Part shown: piece after piece, positions 2,136 through 56,111 of the stretch
How positions within the stretch are numbered: position 1 is the stretch's first letter
Layout of the letters: each line of letters starts with the position of its first letter
Source: Anaerolineae bacterium
GTDB lineage: Bacteria; Chloroflexota; Anaerolineae; CG2-30-64-16
Assembly (NCBI GenBank): GCA_034434235.1
Contig: DAOTZV010000182.1
Coordinates: forward strand, 10,713-74,712
DNA: 64,000 bases
Direction: 5' to 3'
Position numbers and translations under genes: made by a program
The notes under the pieces: model-generated
What the model saw: only the letters and a program-made list of their open reading frames with translations
The model's database searches: none
What the model was told of the DNA's origin: nothing

Positions 2136-3278
2136 TCAGCTCCGGGTCAGCTCGCGGGCGATGATCACGCGCTGGATCTGGCTGGTGCCCTCGTAGATCT
2201 GGTAGATCTTGGCGTCGCGCATCAGCTTCTCGACCGGATATTCGCGACCGTAGCCGTAGCCGCCGAAGACCTGGACCGCGTCGGTGGTGGCTTGCATGCA
2301 CATATCGGCCGCGAAGGCCTTGGCGAAGGCGGCCTCTTTGACGTTGGGTTGTCCGTGATCCACCAGCCAGGCCGCCTTCCAGGTGAGGAGGCGAGCGGCC
2401 TCGATGTTCATCGCCATGTCGGCCAACATGAAGCTGATCGCCTGGTGCGCGATGAGCGGCTTGCCGAAGGCCCGGCGCTCCTGGGCGTAGCGCAGCGCCT
2501 CCTCGAGCGCCCGGCGGGCCACGCCGACGGCTGCCGCGGCCACCGGCGGCCGGGAGTGGTCGAAGACGCGCATGGCGAGCAGAAAGCCTTCCCCTTCGCC
2601 CCCCAAACGCGCTTCCAGCGGGACGCGGACATCCTCCAGGACGATCTCGCCCGTCCAGGCCGCGTGTTGGCCCATCTTCGGGATCGGCTTGCCGCAGGCG
2701 ACCCCGGGCCGGTCGCGCTCCACGATGAACGCAGTGATGCCCTGGTGCCGCGCGGCCGGATCGGTCTTGGCGAACACGACGAAGAAGCTGGCGACCGGCG
2801 CGTTGGTGATCCAGGTCTTGGTGCCGTTCAGGATGTACTCGTCGCCGCGGCGCACCGCGGTCGCCTGGATGCCCGCCACATCGGAGCCGGCCGCGGGTTC
2901 CGTGAGCGCGTAGGCGGCCAGTTCGCCGCCGTCAGTCAGGCGCGGCAGGTATCGTTGCTTCTGCTCCTCGGTGCCGGCCAACAGGATCGGCCAGGCGGCC
3001 AGGTTGTTCAGCATGATCGCCGTCTGGATGCCCGAGCACGCCCAGGCCAGTTCCTCGTTGATGAGACATTCTTCCAGCACGCCCAATCCCGGGCCGCCGT
3101 ATTCCGGCGGGATGTTGGAGCTGAGCAAGCCCAGCTTCTGCGCCTTCTTGATGATGGGCCAGGGGTATTCGTCGCTGCGGTCGTAGTGCTCGGCGGCGGG
3201 CAAGATTTCCTTTTGCGCGAACCGCCGCGCCGTGTCGCGGATCATCTCTTGCTCTGCGGAGAGGGTGAAGTCAAGCAT
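2136..3278 (-). CDS. Acyl-CoA dehydrogenase
   Basis: Full-length ACAD fold: [22 protein letters not shown]..., GGYGY..., C-terminal [18 protein letters not shown]. The ORF's first 8 codons are trimmed to the MLDF start. Confidence 0.9.
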
Positions 3279-10500: not shown

Positions 10501-11295
10501 TCAATCACCGTGATAGACGAGCGTGATGCCGAGTTCCTGGCAGCGTTCCCGCACCTCATCGCCGATGCTCATGGCGATCATGATGCCCTCCACCTTGACG
10601 CCCGGATTCAACGCCTGTACGAAGGCCACTTTCTCGTGTAGCCGATCTATATCTTCCCACTCGCAGTAACTTTTCACTTCAAAGACCGAGATCTGACCAT
10701 CCTGAGCAAGGATATCTATCTCGAATCGCCGTTGCCCCGGGAGGCCAACCACGCCCTTTTCGTCCACCATTCTCTGGCGCAGCCGAAGCTGATCGGGCTT
10801 GATGTCGGGCCGACGCAAGGCGACCCGCAACGCGCCGGCCACCACATCCTCCAGCCGGCGGCCCGAACGCCGCTGCAACCCTCCGACAACGCCCTCAACC
10901 CAATCGCGCAGATCGCTCATTTCTTGTTGCAGGCCTTCGAGGCGCCGATCCACCTCTTCGAAGCGCTGATCTACATGCTCGAAGCGCCGATCAATCTCTT
11001 CGAAGCGCCGGTCGATCTGCTCGAAGCGCCGATCAATCTCTTCGAAGCGCCGGTCGATCTGCTCGAAGCGTTGGTCGATCTGCTCGAAGCGTTGATCTGT
11101 CTTGGCGCTGAAGCGTCTGAATTCGCCGCGAAACTCCCGCATTTCCGCAAGGATCGCCGCCGTCTCTTCTTTGGTGGTGAAAACCCGCAGAAAAGCACGG
11201 AACGCGCGACGTTCCAGATCGGGGTCGCGTTCGATCATCTCCGGAAGCTGCTCTTCCAGAATATGCAAGACTTCTTCATCCTTCAATTTCAACAT
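10501..11295 (-). CDS. Coiled-coil protein: eight tandem heptad repeats (D-x-R-F-E-x-I) in the middle and a C-terminal PD-(D/E)xK-nuclease-like core (EIDIL...VFEVK)
   Basis: Translation reads DQRFEQI DQRFEQI DRRFEEI DRRFEQI DRRFEEI DRRFEHV DQRFEEV DRRLEGL. C-terminal RRFEIDILAQDGQISVFEVKSY fits the D...ExK nuclease motif. A hairpin plus T-tract terminator follows downstream. Confidence 0.6.
   Translation of the reverse strand: MLKLKDEEVLHILEEQLPEMIERDPDLERRAFRAFLRVFTTKEETAAILAEMREFRGEFRRFSAKTDQRFEQIDQRFEQIDRRFEEIDRRFEQIDRRFEEIDRRFEHVDQRFEEVDRRLEGLQQEMSDLRDWVEGVVGGLQRRSGRRLEDVVAGALRVALRRPDIKPDQLRLRQRMVDEKGVVGLPGQRRFEIDILAQDGQISVFEVKSYCEWEDIDRLHEKVAFVQALNPGVKVEGIMIAMSIGDEVRERCQELGITLVYHGD
10936..11096. 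repeat. Near-perfect 21-nt tandem repeat (~8 units, including an exact 42-bp duplication) inside the CDS above
   Basis: GAAGCGCCGATCAATCTCTTC and GAAGCGCCGGTCGATCTGCTC alternate. 10981-11022 is identical to 11023-11064. Confidence 0.85.
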
Positions 11296-13211: not shown

Positions 13212-13261
13212 CCATCCACCGTAAGACGAAATTCAAATTCATTTCGTCTTACGGTGGATGG
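13212..13261. terminator. Perfect 21-bp-stem hairpin between the arabinofuranosidase 3' end and the rph start
   Basis: CCATCCACCGTAAGACGAAAT-tcaaattc-ATTTCGTCTTACGGTGGATGG. No obvious U-tract follows. Confidence 0.45.
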
Positions 13262-13265
13262 CACG

Positions 13266-14753
13266 TCACCCCAACCGAAACGTGAACGCGGCCACCGACA
13301 GCGGCGGCAGCTCGCAACTGGCCTTGCCGTTGGCGATGCGCACGTCGGCGAACGGCCGCGCGACCACCAGGTCGGGCTGCTCGAAGCTGTTGGCGGCCTG
13401 GGCGTCCGGCCCGGTGAGCAGCTCGGCGCTGTCCAGGCGAGCGATGTCGCGGTCGGCCAGATGCACCTGGACGACGGCCGGCGCATCGGTGGATCGGTTG
13501 GTGGCGAAGACGTGCACCACGCCCTGGCCCAGGATCGCGCTGGCATCCACGAAGGTCACGCGGCCGTTCGTCTTGCCTTCGTATTCCGGCCCCTGCACCA
13601 CCGTGCGCAAGGCGACGCCATCCCGACGTTTGGCGTACATCTCGAACGGATAGAAGATGGACTGGATCAACAGGTCATCGCCCCGCGTCAGGAGCGGCGC
13701 GATGACGTTGACGATCTGCGCGATGTTGGCGATCTTCACCACGTCGGCGTGGCGGATGAAGCTGTTCAGGAAGCCGGCCGCGACGAGCGCGTCCTCCAGG
13801 TTGTAGATTTCCTCGATGAGGTGCGGCGCAAACTGGCCCGCGCCGTCCATCTGCCGGTTCTTGTACCAGACGTTCCATTCGTCGAAGCACAGATAAAGCC
13901 GCTTTTTGCTTCGCCGCTTCGCCTGGACGAAACGACACGCGGCATCCATCTCCTCGATCTGGCGATCGATCGAGTTGGTGATCGCCAGATAGTCGGCCGT
14001 GTCGCCGTCGCGATTGCCCACGTAGCGGTGCAGGCTGATGTAGTCGGCGTAGTCGCCGATGTACTCCAGCACCTGGCGATCCCATTCCATATAGGTCGGC
14101 AGGCCGGTCGTGCACGAACCACAGACCACCGTTTCGATGCTCCTGTCCACGTCCTTCATCATCTTGGCGGCCTGCTGCGCGCGGATGGCATAGTGGTCGG
14201 CCGGCACGTGGCCGAGCTGCCAGGGGCCGTCCATCTCGTTGCCCAGGCACCACAACTTCACGCCGTGCGGCTCGGGGTGGCCGTTGGCCGCGCGCAGATC
14301 GGCGAACTTCGTGCCCGGCGGACAGTTGCAGTACTCTACCCAGTTGCGGGCCTCTTCGGGCGTGCCGGTGCCCAGGTTGACCGTGAGCATCGGGGTCCAG
14401 CCCATCCGCCGGCACAGCGTGATGAATTCGTCGGTGCCGAACTGGTTCGGCTCGATGCTCTGCCAGGCCAGCTCGCGCACCGCGGGCCGATTGGCCTTCG
14501 GCCCGACGCCGTCCAGCCAGTGATAGCCCGAGGCGAAGTTGCCGCCCGGATAGCGCATCGCAGTCATCCGCAGGCGTTTCAGGGCTTGCAGTACGTCCGT
14601 GCGAAAGCCGTCGGCATCCGCATGCTTCGACTGTGGATCGTAGACCCCCTCATACACCGCGCGGCCCATGTGCTCCAGAAAGCCGCCGAAGATGCGCGGG
14701 TCAACCGACCCGATCTGAAATGCAGTGTGAAGGATGATGTTCGTCTGGTTCAT
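13266..14753 (-). CDS. Alpha-L-arabinofuranosidase, GH51 family
   Basis: GH51 hallmarks: GGNFASGYHW, WCLGNEMDGPWQ, C-terminal beta-sandwich. Start MNQTNII has an AGGAG RBS. Confidence 0.85.
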   Translation of the reverse strand: MNQTNIILHTAFQIGSVDPRIFGGFLEHMGRAVYEGVYDPQSKHADADGFRTDVLQALKRLRMTAMRYPGGNFASGYHWLDGVGPKANRPAVRELAWQSIEPNQFGTDEFITLCRRMGWTPMLTVNLGTGTPEEARNWVEYCNCPPGTKFADLRAANGHPEPHGVKLWCLGNEMDGPWQLGHVPADHYAIRAQQAAKMMKDVDRSIETVVCGSCTTGLPTYMEWDRQVLEYIGDYADYISLHRYVGNRDGDTADYLAITNSIDRQIEEMDAACRFVQAKRRSKKRLYLCFDEWNVWYKNRQMDGAGQFAPHLIEEIYNLEDALVAAGFLNSFIRHADVVKIANIAQIVNVIAPLLTRGDDLLIQSIFYPFEMYAKRRDGVALRTVVQGPEYEGKTNGRVTFVDASAILGQGVVHVFATNRSTDAPAVVQVHLADRDIARLDSAELLTGPDAQAANSFEQPDLVVARPFADVRIANGKASCELPPLSVAAFTFRLG

Positions 14754-14888
14754 GAGAGGCTCCTGAATCTTGGAAAGGTCTGCAACCGTTTTGGGCATTG
14801 TAGCACCATCGCCCAGGCGAAGCAAACCCCTGAAAAATGCCTTTGCGAATTTGACGAAGGCCGCGATTTTGCACTACACTGTACTTTG

Positions 14889-22113: not shown

Positions 22114-22145
22114 CGTGCCAGGCGCCAGAGAGGGCGCCTGGCACG
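22114..22145. repeat. REP-like palindrome, family 2, just after the binding-protein stop
   Basis: CGTGCCAGGCGCC-AGAGAG-GGCGCCTGGCACG. Related copies lie at 45905 and 50559. Confidence 0.7.
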
Positions 22146-25433: not shown

Positions 25434-26276
25434 ATGAAACTCACCCGTCATGCGACCGCAGGAGCGTTCCTGGCCCGCGCCCGGGCCGCCCTGGAGCGTC
25501 AGGAAGCCTTCAACAACCTGATGCTCGGGGTGGCCACGCGCCTGGACGAAGACCCCGAACGGATCAAAACGCCTCCCTATCTGGCGACGGTCGAGGAAGG
25601 CGATGCGCTGTTGGCCGCGGCGGTCATGACGCCGCCCCATCGGGTCATCGTCCACAGCGAGAGCACGGACCCTGCTCCGCTCCGCCTGATCGCGCATGAT
25701 CTGCACGCGAACGGCTGGGCGCCGCCCGGCGTCATCGGCCCGGCCGCGACGGCGCGGGCCTTCGCCGCGGCGTGGACTGCCGCGGCGGGCGGCTCCTTTC
25801 GCCTCTTGCGCCACGAGCGTGTCTACGAGCTGCGCCAGGTCAACCCGCCGCCCCCGACGCCGGGCGCGTTGCGCGTTGCGGTCGAGGCCGATCAGGCGCT
25901 GGTGGCGCAATGGTTCTATGCCTTCATGCACGAGGTGGGCATGGGAGGCACGGCCGAAGAGCTGGCCGAGCTGGCCGCGCAACGCATTGACCGCCGCGAG
26001 ATCTTTCTCTGGGACGACGGTGGGCCGGTATCTCTGGCCGGCCGCGGTCGCCACACCGCGCACGGCGTGGCGATCGGCCCGGTGTATACGCCGCCGGCGC
26101 TCCGCGGCCGCGGCTACGCCAGCGCGTGCGTCGCGGCCCTGAGCCAGCAGATGCTCGACGCCGGCTGGCGTTTCTGCGCGCTCTTCACCGACCTGGCCAA
26201 TCCGACCTCCAACCGCATCTACCAGAAGATCGGCTATCGGCCTCTCGGCGATTTCGACGAGTACGGGTTCACGTGA
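25434..26276 (+). CDS. GNAT-family N-acetyltransferase (two-lobed)
   Basis: C-terminal acetyl-CoA-binding motif RGRGYASACVAAL...NRIYQKIGY. Confidence 0.65.
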   Translation: MKLTRHATAGAFLARARAALERQEAFNNLMLGVATRLDEDPERIKTPPYLATVEEGDALLAAAVMTPPHRVIVHSESTDPAPLRLIAHDLHANGWAPPGVIGPAATARAFAAAWTAAAGGSFRLLRHERVYELRQVNPPPPTPGALRVAVEADQALVAQWFYAFMHEVGMGGTAEELAELAAQRIDRREIFLWDDGGPVSLAGRGRHTAHGVAIGPVYTPPALRGRGYASACVAALSQQMLDAGWRFCALFTDLANPTSNRIYQKIGYRPLGDFDEYGFT

Positions 26277-26290
26277 TGGGAGGTTTCCCG

Positions 26291-28714
26291 ATGCCCAATC
26301 TGCTCCAGACCGGCCTTTCGTGGTTGGCCCGCGGCCGCCAGCCGCGGCTCAAGGGAACGATCCGCCTGAAAGGTTTGCGCGCCCCGGTGGAGATCATCCG
26401 CGATCGCTGGGGCGTGCCGCACATCTACGCGACCAACATGGCCGACCTGCTCTTCGCGCAGGGATTCGTTCATGCGCAGGATCGCCTGTGGCAGATGGAG
26501 TTCAACCGCCGGCTGGTGGCCGGCCGGCTCTCGGAGGTGATCGGTCCGGCCACGGTGCCGGCCGACCGCTGGCTGCGCATCCTGGGCTTGCGCCGCGCGG
26601 CCGAGGCCGGCCTGGCGCTCCTCCGGCCCGAAGTGCGTGCGGAGCTGGATGCTTATGTCGCAGGCGTCAACGCCTTCATCGCCCGCGGCCCCCTGCCGAT
26701 CGAGTTCACCCTGTTGCGCTACCGGCCCGAGCCCTGGACGCTCGCCGATTCTCTGAGCTGGGCCAAGATGATGGCGTGGAGCCTTTCGATCAACTGGGAG
26801 ACCGAGCTCCTGCGCGCCCGGCTGATCGGCCGGCTTGGCCCCGAGCGCGCCGCCGAGCTGGAGGCCCCCTGGCCGACGCAATGGCCGACGATCATCCCGG
26901 AGGAGCTGCGCCAGGTATCGGCCGAACGCCTGGGCCGGCTGGCGCTGGAGCGGGCCGAGGCCGCGCGACGCTTCGTCGGCCCGGCCGCGCACGCCGGCCT
27001 GGGCAGCAACAACTGGGTCATCGCCGGCAGCCGTACGTTCAGCGGCAAGCCGCTGTTGGCCAACGACATGCACCTGCTGATGGGCATTCCGTGCATCTGG
27101 TACGAGAACCACCTGGTGTGCCAACCCGACGCCGGGGCCGATCCGGCCGACGCGCTGGAGGTGACCGGGGTCACCTTCCCCGGCACGCCGTATGTCGTCG
27201 CCGGCCACAACGCGCACGTTGCCTGGGGCTTCACGAACGGCTTCCCCGACGTGCAGGATCTCTACATGGAGCACCTGCGGCGCACCGACGACGGCCGGGT
27301 GCAATACGAGTTCCGGGGCGAATGGCACGACGCGGAGGTCTTGCGCGAAGTCATCCGCGTCAAAGGCGCGGCGCCGGTCACCGAAGAGGTGATCATCACG
27401 CGGCATGGGCCGATCATCAACGCGCTGGCGCCCGACCTGACGCGAGCGCTGTTGCCGCAGGAGGAGGAGCCGCCGCTGGCGTTGCGTTGGACCGCGCTGG
27501 AGCCCGATACGTTGATCCACGCACTGCGGGCGATGAACCGGGCGCGCTCGTGCCTGGAATTTCGCGAGGCGCTGCGCGAGTGGTCCGCGCCGATCCAGAA
27601 CACCGTCTATGCCGATACGGCCGGCCATATCGGCTACAGCTTTCCGGGCAAGGTGCCCATCCGGGCCAGGGGCGATGGCAGCGTGCCCGTGCCCGGCTGG
27701 ACGGGAGAATACGAGTGGGTGGGCTACGTGCCGTTCGACGCGCTGCCGCATCTCTACGACCCGCCGCAGGGCTACATCGTCACGGCCAACAACCGCGTGG
27801 TCGGCGACGACTATCCCTACTTCATTTCCCGCGAGTATTGCATGGGCGACCGGGCCCAGCGCATCGCCGAGCTGATCGCCGCGCGCGACAGGATCAACGT
27901 GGCCTACATCCGCCGCATGCAATTCGACCAGGTCTCGCCGACCGCCCGCGTGGTGGCGGGCCACATCGGCCGGCTGACGTGCGACGACCCCGAGCTGATG
28001 GCCGTGGCGCGGATGATGGCGGCGTGGGACGGCAATCTGGCCGTGGACAGCCCCCAGGCCGCGATCTATCAGGTGTTCATGCGCCGGATCATCGCACTGT
28101 TGTTGCGCGACCGGCTGGGGGAGGATCTCGCCGCGCGCTACGCGGGCAAGGGGCCGTTGCCGGTCCTGGCCGAGGGGAGCTTCTTCGGCCAGCGGGCATG
28201 GGAATGGGTACAACAGCTCCTGGCCATGGACGACTCGCCCTGGTTCGACCTGGGCCACGGCGAGCGCCGCAACGATGTGATTCGCCTGGCGCTGCGCGAG
28301 ACGGTGGACTTTCTGAAGGCGCGTTTGGGGCCCACGTCGGAGGATTGGGCCTGGGGCAAGCTGCACGTCTTGCGCTTCATCCATTTCGTGGGCCAGATGC
28401 CTGCGCTGGCGCCGCTCTTCAACCGCGGGCCGTTCGCGCTGGGCGGCGACGGCAACACCATCTGGGCCACCGGCAACCGCATGGACACGCTCGACTTCGA
28501 TCAGATCATCGGCCCGCCCTTCCGCCACATCTCAGACCTCGGCGACTGGAGCAACTCGTTCGGCCTGTTGGCGCCCGGCAATTCGGGCCGGCCGGGCAAT
28601 CGCCACTATGACGACCAGATCGAGGCCTGGTTCATGGGCGACTATCATCCGCTGCTCTTCGCGCGCGAGGACGTGGAGCGCGAGGCCGAGGCGCGCCTCC
28701 GGCTATTGCCCTGA
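26291..28714 (+). CDS. Penicillin acylase-family Ntn-hydrolase (S45), possibly an acyl-homoserine-lactone or beta-lactam acylase
   Basis: GVPHIYATNMADLLFAQGFVHAQDRLWQME, the GSNNW nucleophile region, ~807 aa. GGGAGG RBS. Confidence 0.8.
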   Translation: MPNLLQTGLSWLARGRQPRLKGTIRLKGLRAPVEIIRDRWGVPHIYATNMADLLFAQGFVHAQDRLWQMEFNRRLVAGRLSEVIGPATVPADRWLRILGLRRAAEAGLALLRPEVRAELDAYVAGVNAFIARGPLPIEFTLLRYRPEPWTLADSLSWAKMMAWSLSINWETELLRARLIGRLGPERAAELEAPWPTQWPTIIPEELRQVSAERLGRLALERAEAARRFVGPAAHAGLGSNNWVIAGSRTFSGKPLLANDMHLLMGIPCIWYENHLVCQPDAGADPADALEVTGVTFPGTPYVVAGHNAHVAWGFTNGFPDVQDLYMEHLRRTDDGRVQYEFRGEWHDAEVLREVIRVKGAAPVTEEVIITRHGPIINALAPDLTRALLPQEEEPPLALRWTALEPDTLIHALRAMNRARSCLEFREALREWSAPIQNTVYADTAGHIGYSFPGKVPIRARGDGSVPVPGWTGEYEWVGYVPFDALPHLYDPPQGYIVTANNRVVGDDYPYFISREYCMGDRAQRIAELIAARDRINVAYIRRMQFDQVSPTARVVAGHIGRLTCDDPELMAVARMMAAWDGNLAVDSPQAAIYQVFMRRIIALLLRDRLGEDLAARYAGKGPLPVLAEGSFFGQRAWEWVQQLLAMDDSPWFDLGHGERRNDVIRLALRETVDFLKARLGPTSEDWAWGKLHVLRFIHFVGQMPALAPLFNRGPFALGGDGNTIWATGNRMDTLDFDQIIGPPFRHISDLGDWSNSFGLLAPGNSGRPGNRHYDDQIEAWFMGDYHPLLFAREDVEREAEARLRLLP

Positions 28715-28715
28715 C

Positions 28716-28860
28716 CTGTAGGGCGAGATTTATCTCGCCCTACAGGCTATGGAGAGGCGAGATGAATCTCGCCCTACGCGCGTCTTTGGAGGGGCGAGAT
28801 GAATCTCGCCCTACGCGCGTCTTTGGAGAGGCGAGATGAATCTCGCCCTACACGCCTTCC
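28716..28860. repeat. Array of four related hairpin-containing repeats, with 37-bp units, between convergent genes
   Basis: CTGTAGGGCGAGAT-TT-ATCTCGCCCTACAG at 28716-28745. Then AGGCGAGATGAATCTCGCCCTACGCGCGTCTTTGGAG repeated ~2.9 times from 28755 to 28860. The last unit supplies the TAG stop of the receiver gene. Confidence 0.85.
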
Positions 28861-38547: not shown

Positions 38548-39438
38548 ATGAAAGGGATCATCCTCGCGGGCGGAGCGGGCACGCGCCTCTATCCGCTCAC
38601 CATCAGCATCAGCAAGCAGTTGCTGCCGGTCTACGATAAGCCGATGATCTATTACCCGCTCTCCATGCTCATGCTGGCGGGCATCACCGAGATCCTGATC
38701 ATCAGCACGCCCGAAGCGCTGCCGCAGTTTCGCACGTTGCTGCGCGATGGCCGGCAATGGGGGCTGAAGTTCTCGTATGCCGAGCAGCCGACCCCGCGCG
38801 GCCTGGCCGACGCGTTCATCGTGGGCCGCGAGTTCGTCGGCGATCAACCGTCGTGCCTGATCCTGGGCGACAACATCTTCTACGGCCACGGCCTGCCCGG
38901 CCGGCTGCGCGCCGCCGCGCGCCTCACCGAGGGCGCGCTCGTGTTCGCGTATCCGGTCAAAGACCCGGAGCGCTACGGCGTGATCGAGTTCGACGCCTCG
39001 GGCCGCGCGATCAGCATCGAGGAGAAGCCGCAGAAGCCCCGCTCTCACTATGCCGTCCCCGGCCTCTACTTCTACGACGCGCAGGTCGTCGAGATCGCGG
39101 CCAACCTGAAGCCCTCGGCGCGGGGAGAGCTGGAGATCACCGATGTCAATCGCGTGTACCTGGAGCGGGGCCAGTTGCGCGTCGAGCCGCTGGGCCGGGG
39201 CTTCGCCTGGCTCGACGCCGGCACGCACGAGTCGTTGTTGCAGGCGGCCAACTTCGTGCAGGCGATGGAGGAGCGCCAGGGGATGATGATCTCGTGCCCC
39301 GAGGAGATCGCGTATCGGATGGGCTATATCGGCCGGGACGAGCTGCGCCGGCTCGGCGAGGCGATGCGCAGCAACGGCTACGGCCAGTATCTGCTGCGGC
39401 TGGCGGAAGAGGAACTGCCGCCGCCCGACAACGGATAA
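38548..39438 (+). CDS. rfbA: Glucose-1-phosphate thymidylyltransferase
   Basis: [18 protein letters not shown]..., [19 protein letters not shown]. The whole length matches RmlA. AGGAG RBS. Confidence 0.9.
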
Positions 39439-39480
39439 GGGTTGGCGATCCGTCCCGCGGATCGCCAACCCCCGCCTCGG

Positions 39481-45846: not shown

Positions 45847-45904
45847 CCGGCGGGCCGCGACAAGCGTTTTGTGGTATACTCAGACATCACGATTTCGTCA
45901 TCCA

Positions 45905-45936
45905 CGTGCCTGGCACTTCCGGAAGTGCCAGGCACG
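45905..45936. repeat. REP-like palindrome, family 2, upstream of the moxR cluster
   Basis: CGTGCCTGGCAC-TTCCGGAA-GTGCCAGGCACG. Confidence 0.7.
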
Positions 45937-45969
45937 TTCGGGAGATACCGGCGACACTCCTATTCGTTT

Positions 45970-50538: not shown

Positions 50539-50558
50539 CCTGAAAACAGCGCGCCGGA

Positions 50559-50590
50559 CGTGCCAGGCACCTTGGAGGGTGCCTGGCACG
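50559..50590. repeat. REP-like palindrome, family 2
   Basis: CGTGCCAGGCACC-TTGGAGG-GTGCCTGGCACG, between the metallopeptidase-like gene and the FAD oxidase. Confidence 0.7.
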
Positions 50591-50626
50591 TGAAGCGCCG
50601 GCCATTTTCATCATGCAAGGAAGACC

Positions 50627-54891: not shown

Positions 54892-56043
54892 GTGAGCAAT
54901 TCGGAAACAACAGCGACCAAAGGATTGGCCGGCATCGTCGTCGCCGACACCAGCATCAGCTATGTGGACGGCAACCAGGGCATCCTGGAGTATCGGGGCT
55001 ACGATATTCGCGTCTTGGCCGAACACAGCACGTTCGAAGAGGTCGCCTATCTGCTGTGGAACGGCAAGCTTCCCACCGTCCAGGAGCTACAGGCGATGAA
55101 GGCTCAGGCGCGCGCCTGTCGCTTCCTGCCGCCCGAGATCATCGTGGCTTTGCGCAACATGCCGAAGAACGCCGATCCGATGGCGGTGATGCGGACGGCG
55201 GTTTCCATGTTGGCGCACTACGACCCGGAGGCCGAGGACAACACGCCGCTGGCGCATCAGCACAAGGCATGTCGCCTGTTGGGGCAGATCTCGGGCGTGG
55301 TGGCGGCCTATGAGCGGATCCGCCGCGGCGAGGAGCCGATCAAGCCGCGCATGGACCTGGATCATGCCGCGAATTTCCTCTGGATGCTCACGGGCGAAGA
55401 CCCGGAGCCGCTGGCGGCCAAGGCGCTCGACCAGTATCTGCTGTTGCTGGCCGAGCACGAGCTGAACGCCTCCACTTTTACGGCGCGGGTGATCGCCTCG
55501 ACCGGTTCGGAGCTGCACTCGGCGATCACGGGCGCGCTCGGCGCGCTGAAAGGCCCGGCCCACGGCGCGGCCGTGCAGGAAGCCATGATGCAGTTTTTGG
55601 AGATCGGCTCGGCCGACAACGTGGAAGCGTGGTTCAAGAAGGCGCGCGCCGAGGGCCGACGGATCATGGGGATCGGCCATCGCGTCTACAAGGTGCGCGA
55701 TCCGCGCGCCGGTCCGCTGATGAAGAACGTGGAGATGATGGTTGACGCCACGGGCGAGCGCCAATGGTTCGACATCGCCCGTCGCCTGGAAGCGGTGGCC
55801 ACGCAAGACCCGTACTTCAAGGAACGCAACTTGAGCGCCAACGTGGACTTCTACTCCGCGCCGCTGCTCTATTCCATCGGCATTCCGGTGGATGCGTTCA
55901 CCTGTATGTTCGCCATGAGCCGCATCGTGGGCTGGACGGCGCACGTGTACGAGCAGCAGGCCGACAATCGCCTGATCCGGCCGCTCGGCAATTACACGGG
56001 GCAACACCAGTTGCCGTGGGTGCCGCTGGAAGAGCGGCAGTAG
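54892..56043 (+). CDS. Citrate synthase (short ~380-aa type; could be 2-methylcitrate synthase)
   Basis: Conserved GHRVYK..DPR and acetyl-CoA/oxaloacetate site residues. GGGAGGAGG RBS, GTG start. Confidence 0.85.
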   Translation: MSNSETTATKGLAGIVVADTSISYVDGNQGILEYRGYDIRVLAEHSTFEEVAYLLWNGKLPTVQELQAMKAQARACRFLPPEIIVALRNMPKNADPMAVMRTAVSMLAHYDPEAEDNTPLAHQHKACRLLGQISGVVAAYERIRRGEEPIKPRMDLDHAANFLWMLTGEDPEPLAAKALDQYLLLLAEHELNASTFTARVIASTGSELHSAITGALGALKGPAHGAAVQEAMMQFLEIGSADNVEAWFKKARAEGRRIMGIGHRVYKVRDPRAGPLMKNVEMMVDATGERQWFDIARRLEAVATQDPYFKERNLSANVDFYSAPLLYSIGIPVDAFTCMFAMSRIVGWTAHVYEQQADNRLIRPLGNYTGQHQLPWVPLEERQ

Positions 56044-56063
56044 GGGCCATCTATCCTCCACCC

Positions 56064-56090
56064 GTAGCGCAAGCCTCCGGCTTGCGCTAC
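56064..56090. repeat. Palindrome, family 1, after the citrate synthase stop
   Basis: GTAGCGCAAGCC-TCC-GGCTTGCGCTAC. Confidence 0.7.
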
Positions 56091-56111
56091 GGTCCTCTCC
56101 GGGCAAGCTGC

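Follow-up and report, generated by a model that had tools for sequence, protein, structure and literature searches.

An intergenic region of an Anaerolineae genome raises three connected questions: what a head-to-tail series of near-identical hairpins is, how it came to fill the whole space between two convergent genes, and what it may do for their transcripts. We analysed this region within the 64-kb stretch of DNA that contains it, referred to here as the window. The first-pass annotation, made from the letters of the window alone, had recognized the repeats and had considered for them a terminator, an RNA-stability or a protein-binding role.

Architecture of the array

Four hairpins lie between two convergent genes, formed by a palindrome and three tandem 37-bp units, in agreement with the initial description (Table 1). 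The palindrome is perfect, as had been stated, but its length is 32 bp instead of 30. The three 37-bp units share 92-100% identity in pairwise comparison, and on the minus strand each of them reads GTAG-GGCGAGAT-TC-ATCTCGCC, with the GTAG tag located immediately 5' of the stem in four of four hairpins on this strand. The stems are perfect and comprise 8-9 bp with a 2-nt loop, while the predicted fold has a 4-nt loop. The palindrome and unit 1 form an inverted pairing, the arms of which are 95% complementary and located 16 nt apart. Tandem Repeats Finder places a repeat of period 37 and 3.7 copies at 28722-28855, and its score of 205 is the joint top score in the window.

Exact copies of GGCGAGAT-NN-ATCTCGCC start at 28722, 28756, 28793 and 28830, and there is no other exact copy in the 64-kb window. 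When up to three mismatches are allowed, seven matches are found where 1.0 is expected, and none of 100 shuffles reaches seven. The earlier statement that the array resembles nothing else in the window holds for exact copies, but two further tagged palindromes are present (Table 1). Hairpin and linker combined into the full 37-bp unit were seen at this locus only; the combined pattern GAGATTCATCTCGCCYCTCCAWAG had no match in one metagenome collection, which evidently is without the known contigs of the locus, so that this result carries no weight for the occurrence of the unit elsewhere. A CRISPR array had been set aside from the start and can be rejected, as the 19-nt linkers are themselves repeated (92-100% identical) where unique spacers would be found, and no cas gene was noted among the mapped genes. 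In a search with Rfam 15, the best match to the region at permissive E-values scored 24.6 bits against a threshold of 268, and the whole window contained no match at gathering score. There are no tRNA or tmRNA genes near the array.

Table 1. Positions of the array, its hairpins and related features in the window.
Feature	Position	Strand or location	Sequence, evidence or remarks
Penicillin-amidase family gene	26126..28714	+	ORF list; Pfam PF01804 on the identical gene in contigs L001-L004
Whole array	28715-28857	between two convergent genes	32-bp palindrome, then three 37-bp units
Palindrome	28715-28746	both strands	CCTGTAGGGCGAGAT-TT-ATCTCGCCCTACAGG; perfect, 32 bp; REP hairpin
Tags of the palindrome	28718-28721 (GTAG, +); 28740-28743 (CTAC)	GTAG on both strands	core hairpin 28722-28739
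Unit 1, 37 bp	28747-28783	-	linker CTATGGAGA; hairpin GGCGAGAT-GA-ATCTCGCC 28756-28773; tag CTAC 28774-28777; then GCGCGT
Unit 2, 37 bp	28784-28820	-	hairpin 28793-28810; stem extends to 9 bp (28792-28811); tag CTAC 28811-28814
Unit 3, 37 bp	28821-28857	-	hairpin 28830-28847; tag CTAC 28848-28851
CheY-like (Rcp1-type) single-domain response-regulator gene, 150 aa	28848..29300	-	Pfam PF00072; homologues
Further tagged palindrome	13212-13261		core GTAAGACGAAAT...ATTTCGTCTTAC
Single perfect palindrome, unrelated	39439-39471	convergent gap	no T-run
Further tagged palindrome; single, perfect, unrelated	56062-56092	convergent gap	CCGTAGCGCAAGCC-TCC-GGCTTGCGCTACGG; no T-run

The hairpin is a dispersed GTAG-tagged REP

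We compared the hairpin with described families of bacterial repeats. A GTAG at the head of a short, perfect stem-loop marks the GTAG-tagged REP super-family, the members of which go together with RAYT transposases (Di Nocera et al. 2013, PMC3733652; Nunvar et al. 2010, PMC2817692). Our array is a local cluster of one such GTAG-tagged REP family, and thus belongs to an already described kind of bacterial repeat. The REP features found here are a short palindrome forming a stem-loop, which in REPs spans 20-40 bp, GTAG at the stem end, an extragenic 3' position near the ends of ORFs, and clustering.

The hairpin is widespread. In a species-representative genome collection, the pattern GTAGGGCGAGAT-N(1-8)-ATCTCGCC was found in more than 114 stretches, with a chance expectation of about 9 matches, distributed evenly over the eight loop lengths. 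The loop measures 2-3 nt in about 130 of the 141 matches listed, and the few matches with loops of 7-8 nt, located in G+C-rich, coding-looking DNA, are probably the chance fraction. The sequences that flank the hairpins are intergenic and show no relation from one genome to the next, and in many copies a tag is present at either end (GTAG...CTAC). Among stem variants in the fetched loci, both arms are changed in 51 and one arm only in 4, and palindromy is therefore maintained. By record title among the matches listed, the hosts are mostly Chloroflexota (Anaerolineae, Chloroflexia, Thermoflexales, Caldilineae, Ardenticatenia); the remaining titles name Ignavibacteriota, Bacteroidota, Actinomycetota (Gaiellaceae), Phycisphaerales, Chthonomonas, Pontiellaceae and one 'Blastochloridaceae' MAG. 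Tag and stem together thus span at least seven phyla of MAGs, again by record title, and single MAGs contribute at least 10-20 hairpin copies among the matches listed. The first-pass annotation had regarded a common genome-wide REP as the outcome that would overturn its reading, and this is largely what we found, a dispersed GTAG-tagged REP present in many genomes and located beside RAYT genes. The stem GGCGAGAT itself was not found in the searchable text of the literature, including that of PMC3733652 and its supplements, a comparison with written text and not with the 24 family consensus sequences drawn in Figure 1 of that paper.

In the genome of origin, dispersal has to be assessed from one exact-stem cluster in the 64-kb window and from further clusters in contigs of matching composition. 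A scan of metagenomes for two neighboring hairpins returned 102 stretches; about 45 of them, from several metagenomes, were rejected as coincidences in a conserved coding context (G-E-I/M-H/D-L-A), and the remainder are real clusters. Seven of the contigs (L191, L220, L183, L157, L170, L184 and L168) have a tetranucleotide correlation with the window of 0.967-0.990, on a scale where the window's own pieces reach 0.982-0.991 and other contigs of similar G+C reach at most 0.93. They represent six distinct loci, with L183 and L220 containing the same locus with 4 and 5 hairpins, respectively. Four of the seven share a metagenome with one of the contigs that contain the window's locus. The clusters in the seven contigs comprise 2-10 hairpins, again with TC/GA loops, and often begin precisely where the upstream gene has its stop codon. 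Because such contigs carry further clusters, the repeat is very probably dispersed in the genome of the window's organism too, their assignment to the same organism being made by composition only.

The arrays differ in their periods, which are 37 bp in the window, and 31 bp in L183 and L220; other metagenome contigs have periods of 43, 51 and 53 bp. Within an array the linkers share 92-100% identity, but those of different loci are unrelated. As judged by these sequences, each array grew locally, by duplication of a hairpin together with its adjacent flank. Di Nocera et al. 2013 (PMC3733652) describe this mode of growth for REP clusters, the tandem units of which include flanking DNA.

Association with RAYT transposases

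We searched for RAYT candidates by tblastn with an approximate RAYT-like query and used only those matches that were confirmed by NCBIfam and by homologues. Three RAYT-like ORFs match the NCBIfam model NF047646 ('REP-associated tyrosine transposase') with E = 7e-14 (the protein of contig L199), 2e-14 and 2e-21; their 52-76 bits are below the 80-bit equivalog cut-off. Matches to Pfam Y1_Tnp are weak or absent. Homologues of the L199 protein carry the JGI name 'REP element-mobilizing transposase RayT', and both the HUH motif (MPNHIHGI) and the Y motif (YIxxNP) are present in the alignment.

In the metagenome contigs L199 and L241, the RAYT homologue has several GTAG-GGGCGAGAT-NN-ATCTCGCCC hairpins on each side. 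L241 is an independent contig, with a protein 90% identical to that of L199. In a third contig (L136), a RAYT fragment is followed by three hairpins of the GTAG-GGGCGAGAT type, and the RAYT genes of L199, L233 and L241 end on, or directly before, a tagged hairpin. More distant RAYT homologues are flanked by other GTAG-tagged palindromes, for example GGGGCACGAT... and GGGGCGTTCAATTGAACGCCCC, as would be expected if REP-RAYT pairs change together. Gene neighborhoods in other organisms than the window's thus place the hairpin family in a REP-RAYT system. No RAYT gene was found by tblastn in the 64-kb window or in the composition-matched contigs. When all ORFs of the 114 loci were clustered, there was no recurrent neighbor gene besides unrelated housekeeping families (FolD, FabF, hydrolases, sigma factors). 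This is expected if each genome contains a single copy of the mobilizing gene.

A separate, preliminary observation concerns several RAYT genes of this clade, the coding sequence of which appears to contain, in frame, a copy of the gene's own REP.

History of the locus and origin of the stop codon

The stop codon of the amidase gene (TGA, 28712-28714) directly abuts the palindrome. The true start of this gene is probably near 26291, because metagenome gene calls give a protein of 807 aa. The convergent response-regulator gene, whose closest named relative in a homologue search is from an Anaerolineae MAG, stands downstream of two Helicase_C_3 genes. Its stop codon is CTA at 28848-28850 (TAG on the minus strand), within the CCCTAC of the last unit, and so does lie inside that unit as the first-pass annotation had said. 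The TAG forms part of the GTAG tag, and the first G of the tag is the last base of the final Val codon. The convergent stop codons are separated by 133 nt, which the array fills with 0 nt to spare on either side.

Relatives of the locus retain the gene order, with two Helicase_C_3 genes and the response regulator converging on the amidase gene, and they differ in their hairpins. Comparing copy number across strains, as had been suggested, gave three, four or five hairpins at 98.8-99.7% DNA identity: there are three in eight of the contigs L001-L010, five in L003 and four in the window, and L010 matches the first three hairpins of the window and ends inside the array. Two samples with the identical locus come from Chocolate Pots hot springs, Yellowstone (PMC6137239). 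At 90% DNA identity (L125), one hairpin fills a 23-nt gap, which reads GTG-TAG-GGCGAGAT-TG-ATCTCGCC-CCTGT-TCA. Two contigs at 82% DNA identity are without such a hairpin and contain a different palindromic element rich in CACGAAT; here, the response-regulator gene ends in GTG TAG in L126 and in GTA TGA in L127. At 73-75% DNA identity (L128 and L129) the hairpin is absent and the stop codon is TGA. The series of 3, 4 or 5 copies in near-identical strains, 1 copy at 90% and none at 82% and below indicates recent growth by tandem duplication of hairpin plus linker. One hairpin copy was present directly after GTG-TAG in the common ancestor of the window's species and its 90% relative. In the window's species, slippage during replication or unequal recombination then multiplied the hairpin with its 19-bp linker in head-to-tail orientation.

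The first-pass annotation had taken the position of the stop codon to mean that the array expanded into the end of the gene, a view that the relatives contradict. Orthologues of 73-93% identity retain the C-terminus of the response regulator, HLPGEGV/I, whether or not the hairpin is present; L125 shows the same junction with one hairpin, and L126 ends in GTG TAG without any. As the one-hairpin L125 has the identical GTG-TAG-GGCGAGAT join and the conserved C-terminus, alignment of these loci indicates that the hairpin already adjoined the stop codon before the array arose, and that the array left the protein unchanged.

We analysed how often a tag provides a stop codon in this hairpin family. 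Among 93 tagged hairpins for which the longest upstream ORF (75 nt upstream) shares the strand, 14 have an ORF that ends exactly on the TAG of the tag, a count inflated by the guaranteed TAG in the tag, and no other single position accounts for more than 3. A cruder count of any ORF of at least 120 codons ending near the tag was discarded, with 37 in the in-frame phase vs 38 in another phase, as it is confounded by spurious long frames in G+C-rich DNA. A stop codon supplied by the tag is a general property of the family; according to Di Nocera et al. 2013 (PMC3733652), GTAG REPs 'often provide the ... stop codon (TAG)'.

Folding and likely function of the hairpin stack

RNA folding, a further check that had been proposed, shows the array to be far more stable than its shuffles on both strands (z = -9.4 for plus, -8.6 for minus). 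At 37 C, the units have predicted energies between -12.8 and -15.1 kcal/mol and the palindrome one of -26.9 kcal/mol (z of about -9 to -10); at 65 C, the range is -6.6 to -16.1 kcal/mol. The four REP stems lack a T-run behind them on both strands, and none of them is a canonical intrinsic (Rho-independent) terminator. The only terminator-like call, at 28706-28726 on the plus strand, is a weaker, different stem formed over the amidase stop codon and the left half of the palindrome, and this one call is within what shuffles give (0.5 expected). Other convergent gaps in the window also contain single, perfect palindromes that are unrelated to the array and lack T-runs (Table 1), which suggests that palindromes serve as 3'-end structures in this organism.

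We consider it probable that the array is a REP cluster which was duplicated locally and acts as a stack of 3'-end hairpins for both convergent mRNAs. Each transcript would terminate in stable hairpins, the first of which begins at its stop codon or immediately behind it. By analogy with REPs, the stack likely serves as a terminator or as an mRNA stabilizer, and of the roles considered initially these are the most plausible, although not in the form of a canonical intrinsic terminator. The stack would stop or attenuate transcription arriving from both sides, and the hairpins may shield both mRNAs from 3' exonucleases, as REPs do in Escherichia coli. The first hairpin, which begins at the stop codon itself, may in addition slow translation termination on the response-regulator mRNA. 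The multi-hairpin E. coli REP325 acts as a partial, partly Rho-dependent terminator and as an mRNA stabilizer, and convergent genes with a REP between them are both expressed at a higher level; terminal REPs leave mRNA half-life unchanged genome-wide (bioRxiv 10.64898/2026.03.23.713779).

The main effect could alternatively be on translation instead of transcription. In this account, the stop-codon hairpin would hinder the terminating ribosome and lower the output of the response regulator, with copy number tuning the outcome. Liang, Rudd and Deutscher (Mol Cell 2015) reportedly observed ribosome stalling and trans-translation in E. coli when a REP is no more than about 15 nt away from a stop codon. 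Here, the hairpin starts at the base after TAG, ORFs end on the TAG of the tag far more often than at any other position (14 vs at most 3), and three RAYT genes end on or directly before such a hairpin. However, the first hairpin alone could act in this way, which leaves the extra copies unexplained, and the stop codon count is inflated by the TAG guaranteed in every tag and shows no excess over one other frame in its cruder version. We regard this account as rather unlikely.

Somewhat less probable still is a home-grown bidirectional terminator, unrelated to mobile REPs, whose copies were selected for tighter termination in a thermophile. The palindromes in the other convergent gaps would agree with such an origin, as would the different palindromic element that the 82% relatives carry at the same spot, where some hairpin seems to be wanted, and the weakness of single 8-bp stems at 65 C (-6.6 kcal/mol). 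However, an identical 12-nt tag and stem in more than 100 unrelated loci from several phyla cannot have been invented locally, and the same hairpin flanking RAYT homologues and the lack of T-runs also speak against this origin.

A protein-binding array, the third role initially considered, appears very improbable. It would consist of sites for RAYT, a nucleoid protein or gyrase that act on DNA topology between the convergent units. E. coli REP/BIME elements bind IHF, gyrase and Pol I, positive supercoils accumulate between convergently transcribed genes, and the window presents identical sites at a regular 37-bp spacing. This spacing differs by locus (31, 37, 43, 51 and 53 bp), which argues against a fixed protein lattice, and the sequence points to no particular protein. 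In addition, the model of chromosome compaction by E. coli REP325 and HU is unsupported in recent work (bioRxiv 10.64898/2026.03.23.713779).

An assembly artefact or a chance repeat can be rejected: although repeats do break assemblies, and the related contig L010 ends inside the array, the structure is agreed in eleven independent assemblies, including ten independently assembled contigs that are 98.8-99.7% identical and carry the array, and both the shuffles, none of which reaches the observed hairpin count, and the Tandem Repeats Finder score of 205 speak against chance.

Discussion

Our favored reading, a locally duplicated REP cluster that acts at the 3' ends of both mRNAs, can be compared with several known systems. 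The closest is the GTAG-tagged REP super-family (PMC3733652), with which the array shares a perfect 8-9-bp stem, a 2-3-nt loop and GTAG at one end, a location between convergent or co-directional ORFs at most 20 bp from the ORF ends, and a tag that supplies the TAG stop codon. GTAG REPs occur in Chloroflexi and mostly have such a location, and clusters between convergent genes were already described in 2013; the clustered GTAG-23 elements of the Chloroflexi member T. roseum likewise form tandem units that include flanking DNA (PMC3733652). As differences, head-to-tail REP dimers are rare in that study (PMC3733652), whereas head-to-tail arrays are common in the present hairpin family, and the stem occurs in at least seven phyla (by record titles).

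E. coli REP and BIME elements, such as the 12-hairpin REP325, also form extragenic multi-hairpin arrays in 3' untranslated regions, and their positions and copy number vary between strains. About 60% are located between convergent genes. Their stems are imperfect and longer, in contrast to the perfect 8-9-bp stems of the array, and BIMEs alternate two REP types with defined linker motifs, where we find one type, head to tail, with a locus-specific linker. We therefore rejected a strict BIME, as the three units share their tag orientation and only the terminal palindrome gives an inverted pairing.

In Pseudomonas REPIN-RAYT systems (Bertels and Rainey 2011; Nunvar et al. 2010), REPs are similarly headed by GTAG, and the RAYT flanked by its own REPs in L199 and L241 follows the same arrangement. 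Inverted doublets, as in REPINs, are seen in the Blastochloridaceae MAG, in the flanks of L199, and in the palindrome plus unit 1 of the window. The array consists mostly of direct repeats of a symmetric hairpin rather than of one inverted doublet, and the RAYT clade described here scores below the NCBIfam curated cut-off.

A conserved tetranucleotide 5' of a hairpin is also found in the sub-terminal hairpins of IS200/IS605 elements (IS608, ISDra2). There, hairpin and tetranucleotide are recognized on single-stranded DNA by a Y1 HUH transposase, and IS608-type elements insert 3' of their target tetranucleotide. Insertion of this style would fit a hairpin located exactly 3' of a pre-existing GTG-TAG; L126, a single case, is compatible with a hairpin having entered 3' of a GTAG that was already provided by the G of the Val codon and the TAG. 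In contrast to IS200/IS605 elements, the array has no transposase gene between its hairpins and no left and right ends.

For the window locus itself, very little changes. It represents a REP cluster of the textbook type, and a stop codon that lies within the repeat, its most striking feature, has already been described for GTAG REPs. The polymorphism of three, four or five copies provides a ready strain marker for the hot-spring Anaerolineae population, and the copy-number series offers a natural test of whether two convergent genes are tuned in their expression by how many REP hairpins lie between them.

The wider family may hold more. REP/RAYT pairs are usually taken to be inherited vertically and to be specific to their lineage. 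An identical GTAG-GGCGAGAT REP and a related RAYT clade common to Chloroflexota, Ignavibacteriota, Bacteroidota, Actinomycetota, Planctomycetota, Armatimonadota and others would mean either that a REP-RAYT pair spread horizontally and repeatedly between phyla or that its recognition specificity is extremely conserved, and the in-frame REP copies would hint at self-regulation or self-targeting. We put this forward tentatively, as a possibility with the balance of probability against it. The occurrence of the same stem in many phyla, of RAYT genes flanked by REPs and of internal REP copies, all preliminary observations, may be of interest for the evolution of REPs and RAYTs. If an active cross-phylum REP-RAYT system does exist, the strain-variable array in the window would be one of its visible products.

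Further Palindromes in the Window

Besides the array of four GTAG-tagged REP hairpins, the window contains other perfect palindromes and a tandem repeat. The perfect palindrome at 56062-56092 is situated between two convergent genes, whose ends are at 56043 (+) and 56112 (-), and its stem differs from that of the array's hairpins. It probably represents a second REP family in this genome. A minus-strand gene (13266..14873) is followed, 5 nt after its stop codon, by the palindrome at 13212-13261. Three A/G transitions are all that separate the core of this palindrome, GTAAGACGAAAT, from GTAGGGCGAGAT, and the outer arms (CCATCCAC) are similar to the beginning of the CACGAAT-rich element found in L126, a relative with 82% DNA identity. 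Three palindromes of another family occupy short intergenic gaps; two of these (45904-45937 and 50558-50591) have the core ACGTGCC(A/T)GGCAC in common, and the third (CGTGCCAGGCGCC...) is a close variant of them. The palindrome at 39439-39471 fills most of a 42-nt gap between convergent genes (ends at 39438 (+) and 39481 (-)) and is not accompanied by a T-run. As one of several such cases, it suggests that transcripts of this organism end at plain hairpins. The tandem repeat at 10937-11091 encodes a heptad-like repeat, FEQIDRRFEEIDRR, and is therefore a coding repeat; we rejected it as a non-coding element.

Palindromic and repeat features in the window and in fetched loci
Feature	Locus	Position	Remark
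21-bp tandem repeat, 7.4 copies	Window	10937-11091	Inside ORF 10501..11295, minus strand
50-bp perfect palindrome, 21-bp stem	Window	13212-13261	CCATCCACCGTAAGACGAAAT-TCAAATTC-ATTTCGTCTTACGGTGGATGG
Perfect palindrome, another family	Window	22114-22145	Short intergenic gap
Perfect palindrome	Window	39439-39471	GGGTTGGCGATCCG-TCCCG-CGGATCGCCAACCC
Perfect palindrome, another family	Window	45904-45937	Short intergenic gap
Perfect palindrome, another family	Window	50558-50591	Short intergenic gap
Perfect palindrome	Window	56062-56092	CCGTAGCGCAAGCC-TCC-GGCTTGCGCTACGG; GTAG tag on both strands
CACGAAT/ATTCGTG-rich palindromic element	L126	3549-3737	
CACGAAT/ATTCGTG-rich palindromic element	L127	1476-1572	
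Internal palindrome of RAYT homologue	L233	1797-1816	Anaerolineae MAG GCA_020851635.1
Internal palindrome of RAYT homologue	L235	1774-1801	
Internal palindrome of RAYT homologue	L236	1762-1791	
Internal palindrome of RAYT homologue	L238/L239	1793-1808	Bacteroidota MAG GCA_049589195.1

Hairpin Turnover and Longer Arrays

In the relatives L126 and L127 (82% DNA identity), the corresponding intergenic gap contains not GTAG hairpins but a different palindromic element of 100-190 nt with many CACGAAT/ATTCGTG repeats. Thus, the position stays fixed while the hairpin elements found there turn over. Other loci carry far longer arrays of the window array's hairpin family. L203 (Ga0180437_10002371) harbors a run of ~51-bp units from ~12030 onwards, with GGCGAGAT and GGCAAGAT variants, and L168 contains ~10 hairpins at 2707-3047, with GGCGAGAT and GGCGAAAT variants; this run stops precisely where an ORF of 708 codons has its stop codon.

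Not every match to this stem is a REP hairpin. Among the metagenome contigs from our two-hairpin scan (L131-L232), ~45 (e.g. L131, L134, and L138) contain GGCGAGAT(C/G/T)(C/G/A)ATCTCGCC within a conserved coding context (peptide G-E-I/M-H/D-L-A-G). We rejected these matches as coincidence in protein-coding DNA; any search for the array's hairpin that omits the GTAG tag would be contaminated by them. The hairpin plus linker pattern had no match in the metagenome contig collection, an absence that is not evidence, because known JGI contigs with hairpin and linker were missed and the collection is evidently incomplete for these samples. One such contig, Ga0272448_1013657, was also missing from a second metagenome scan.

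Palindromes Shared by MAGs of Several Phyla and Present within RAYT Genes

An identical palindrome, GTAGGGGCGTTCAATTGAACGCCCCTAC, flanks the RAYT homologues of L233 and L238/L239, which come from MAGs of two phyla and are only 45% identical. Likewise, the GGCGAGAT stem is common to MAGs from at least seven phyla. Some of these MAGs may be mis-binned; together, the two findings point to horizontal spread or to unusually conserved recognition.

Several of the fetched RAYT homologues contain an in-frame GTAG-tagged palindrome, the same as that found on their flanks. It is located in a variable linker right after the HUH motif, ~270-300 nt from the start of the gene. In L233, GGGCGTTCAATTGAACGCCC is found within the gene and on both of its flanks, and in L235, GTAGGGGTTCAATATATTGAACCCCTAC is found within the gene and at its end. 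The RAYT of L199, flanked by the array's hairpin type, has no internal copy, in contrast to those of L233, L235, L236, and L238/L239. To our knowledge, RAYT genes holding an in-frame copy of their own flanking REP have not been described. The internal copy could serve in self-regulation, or the linker could be a hot spot for REP insertion.
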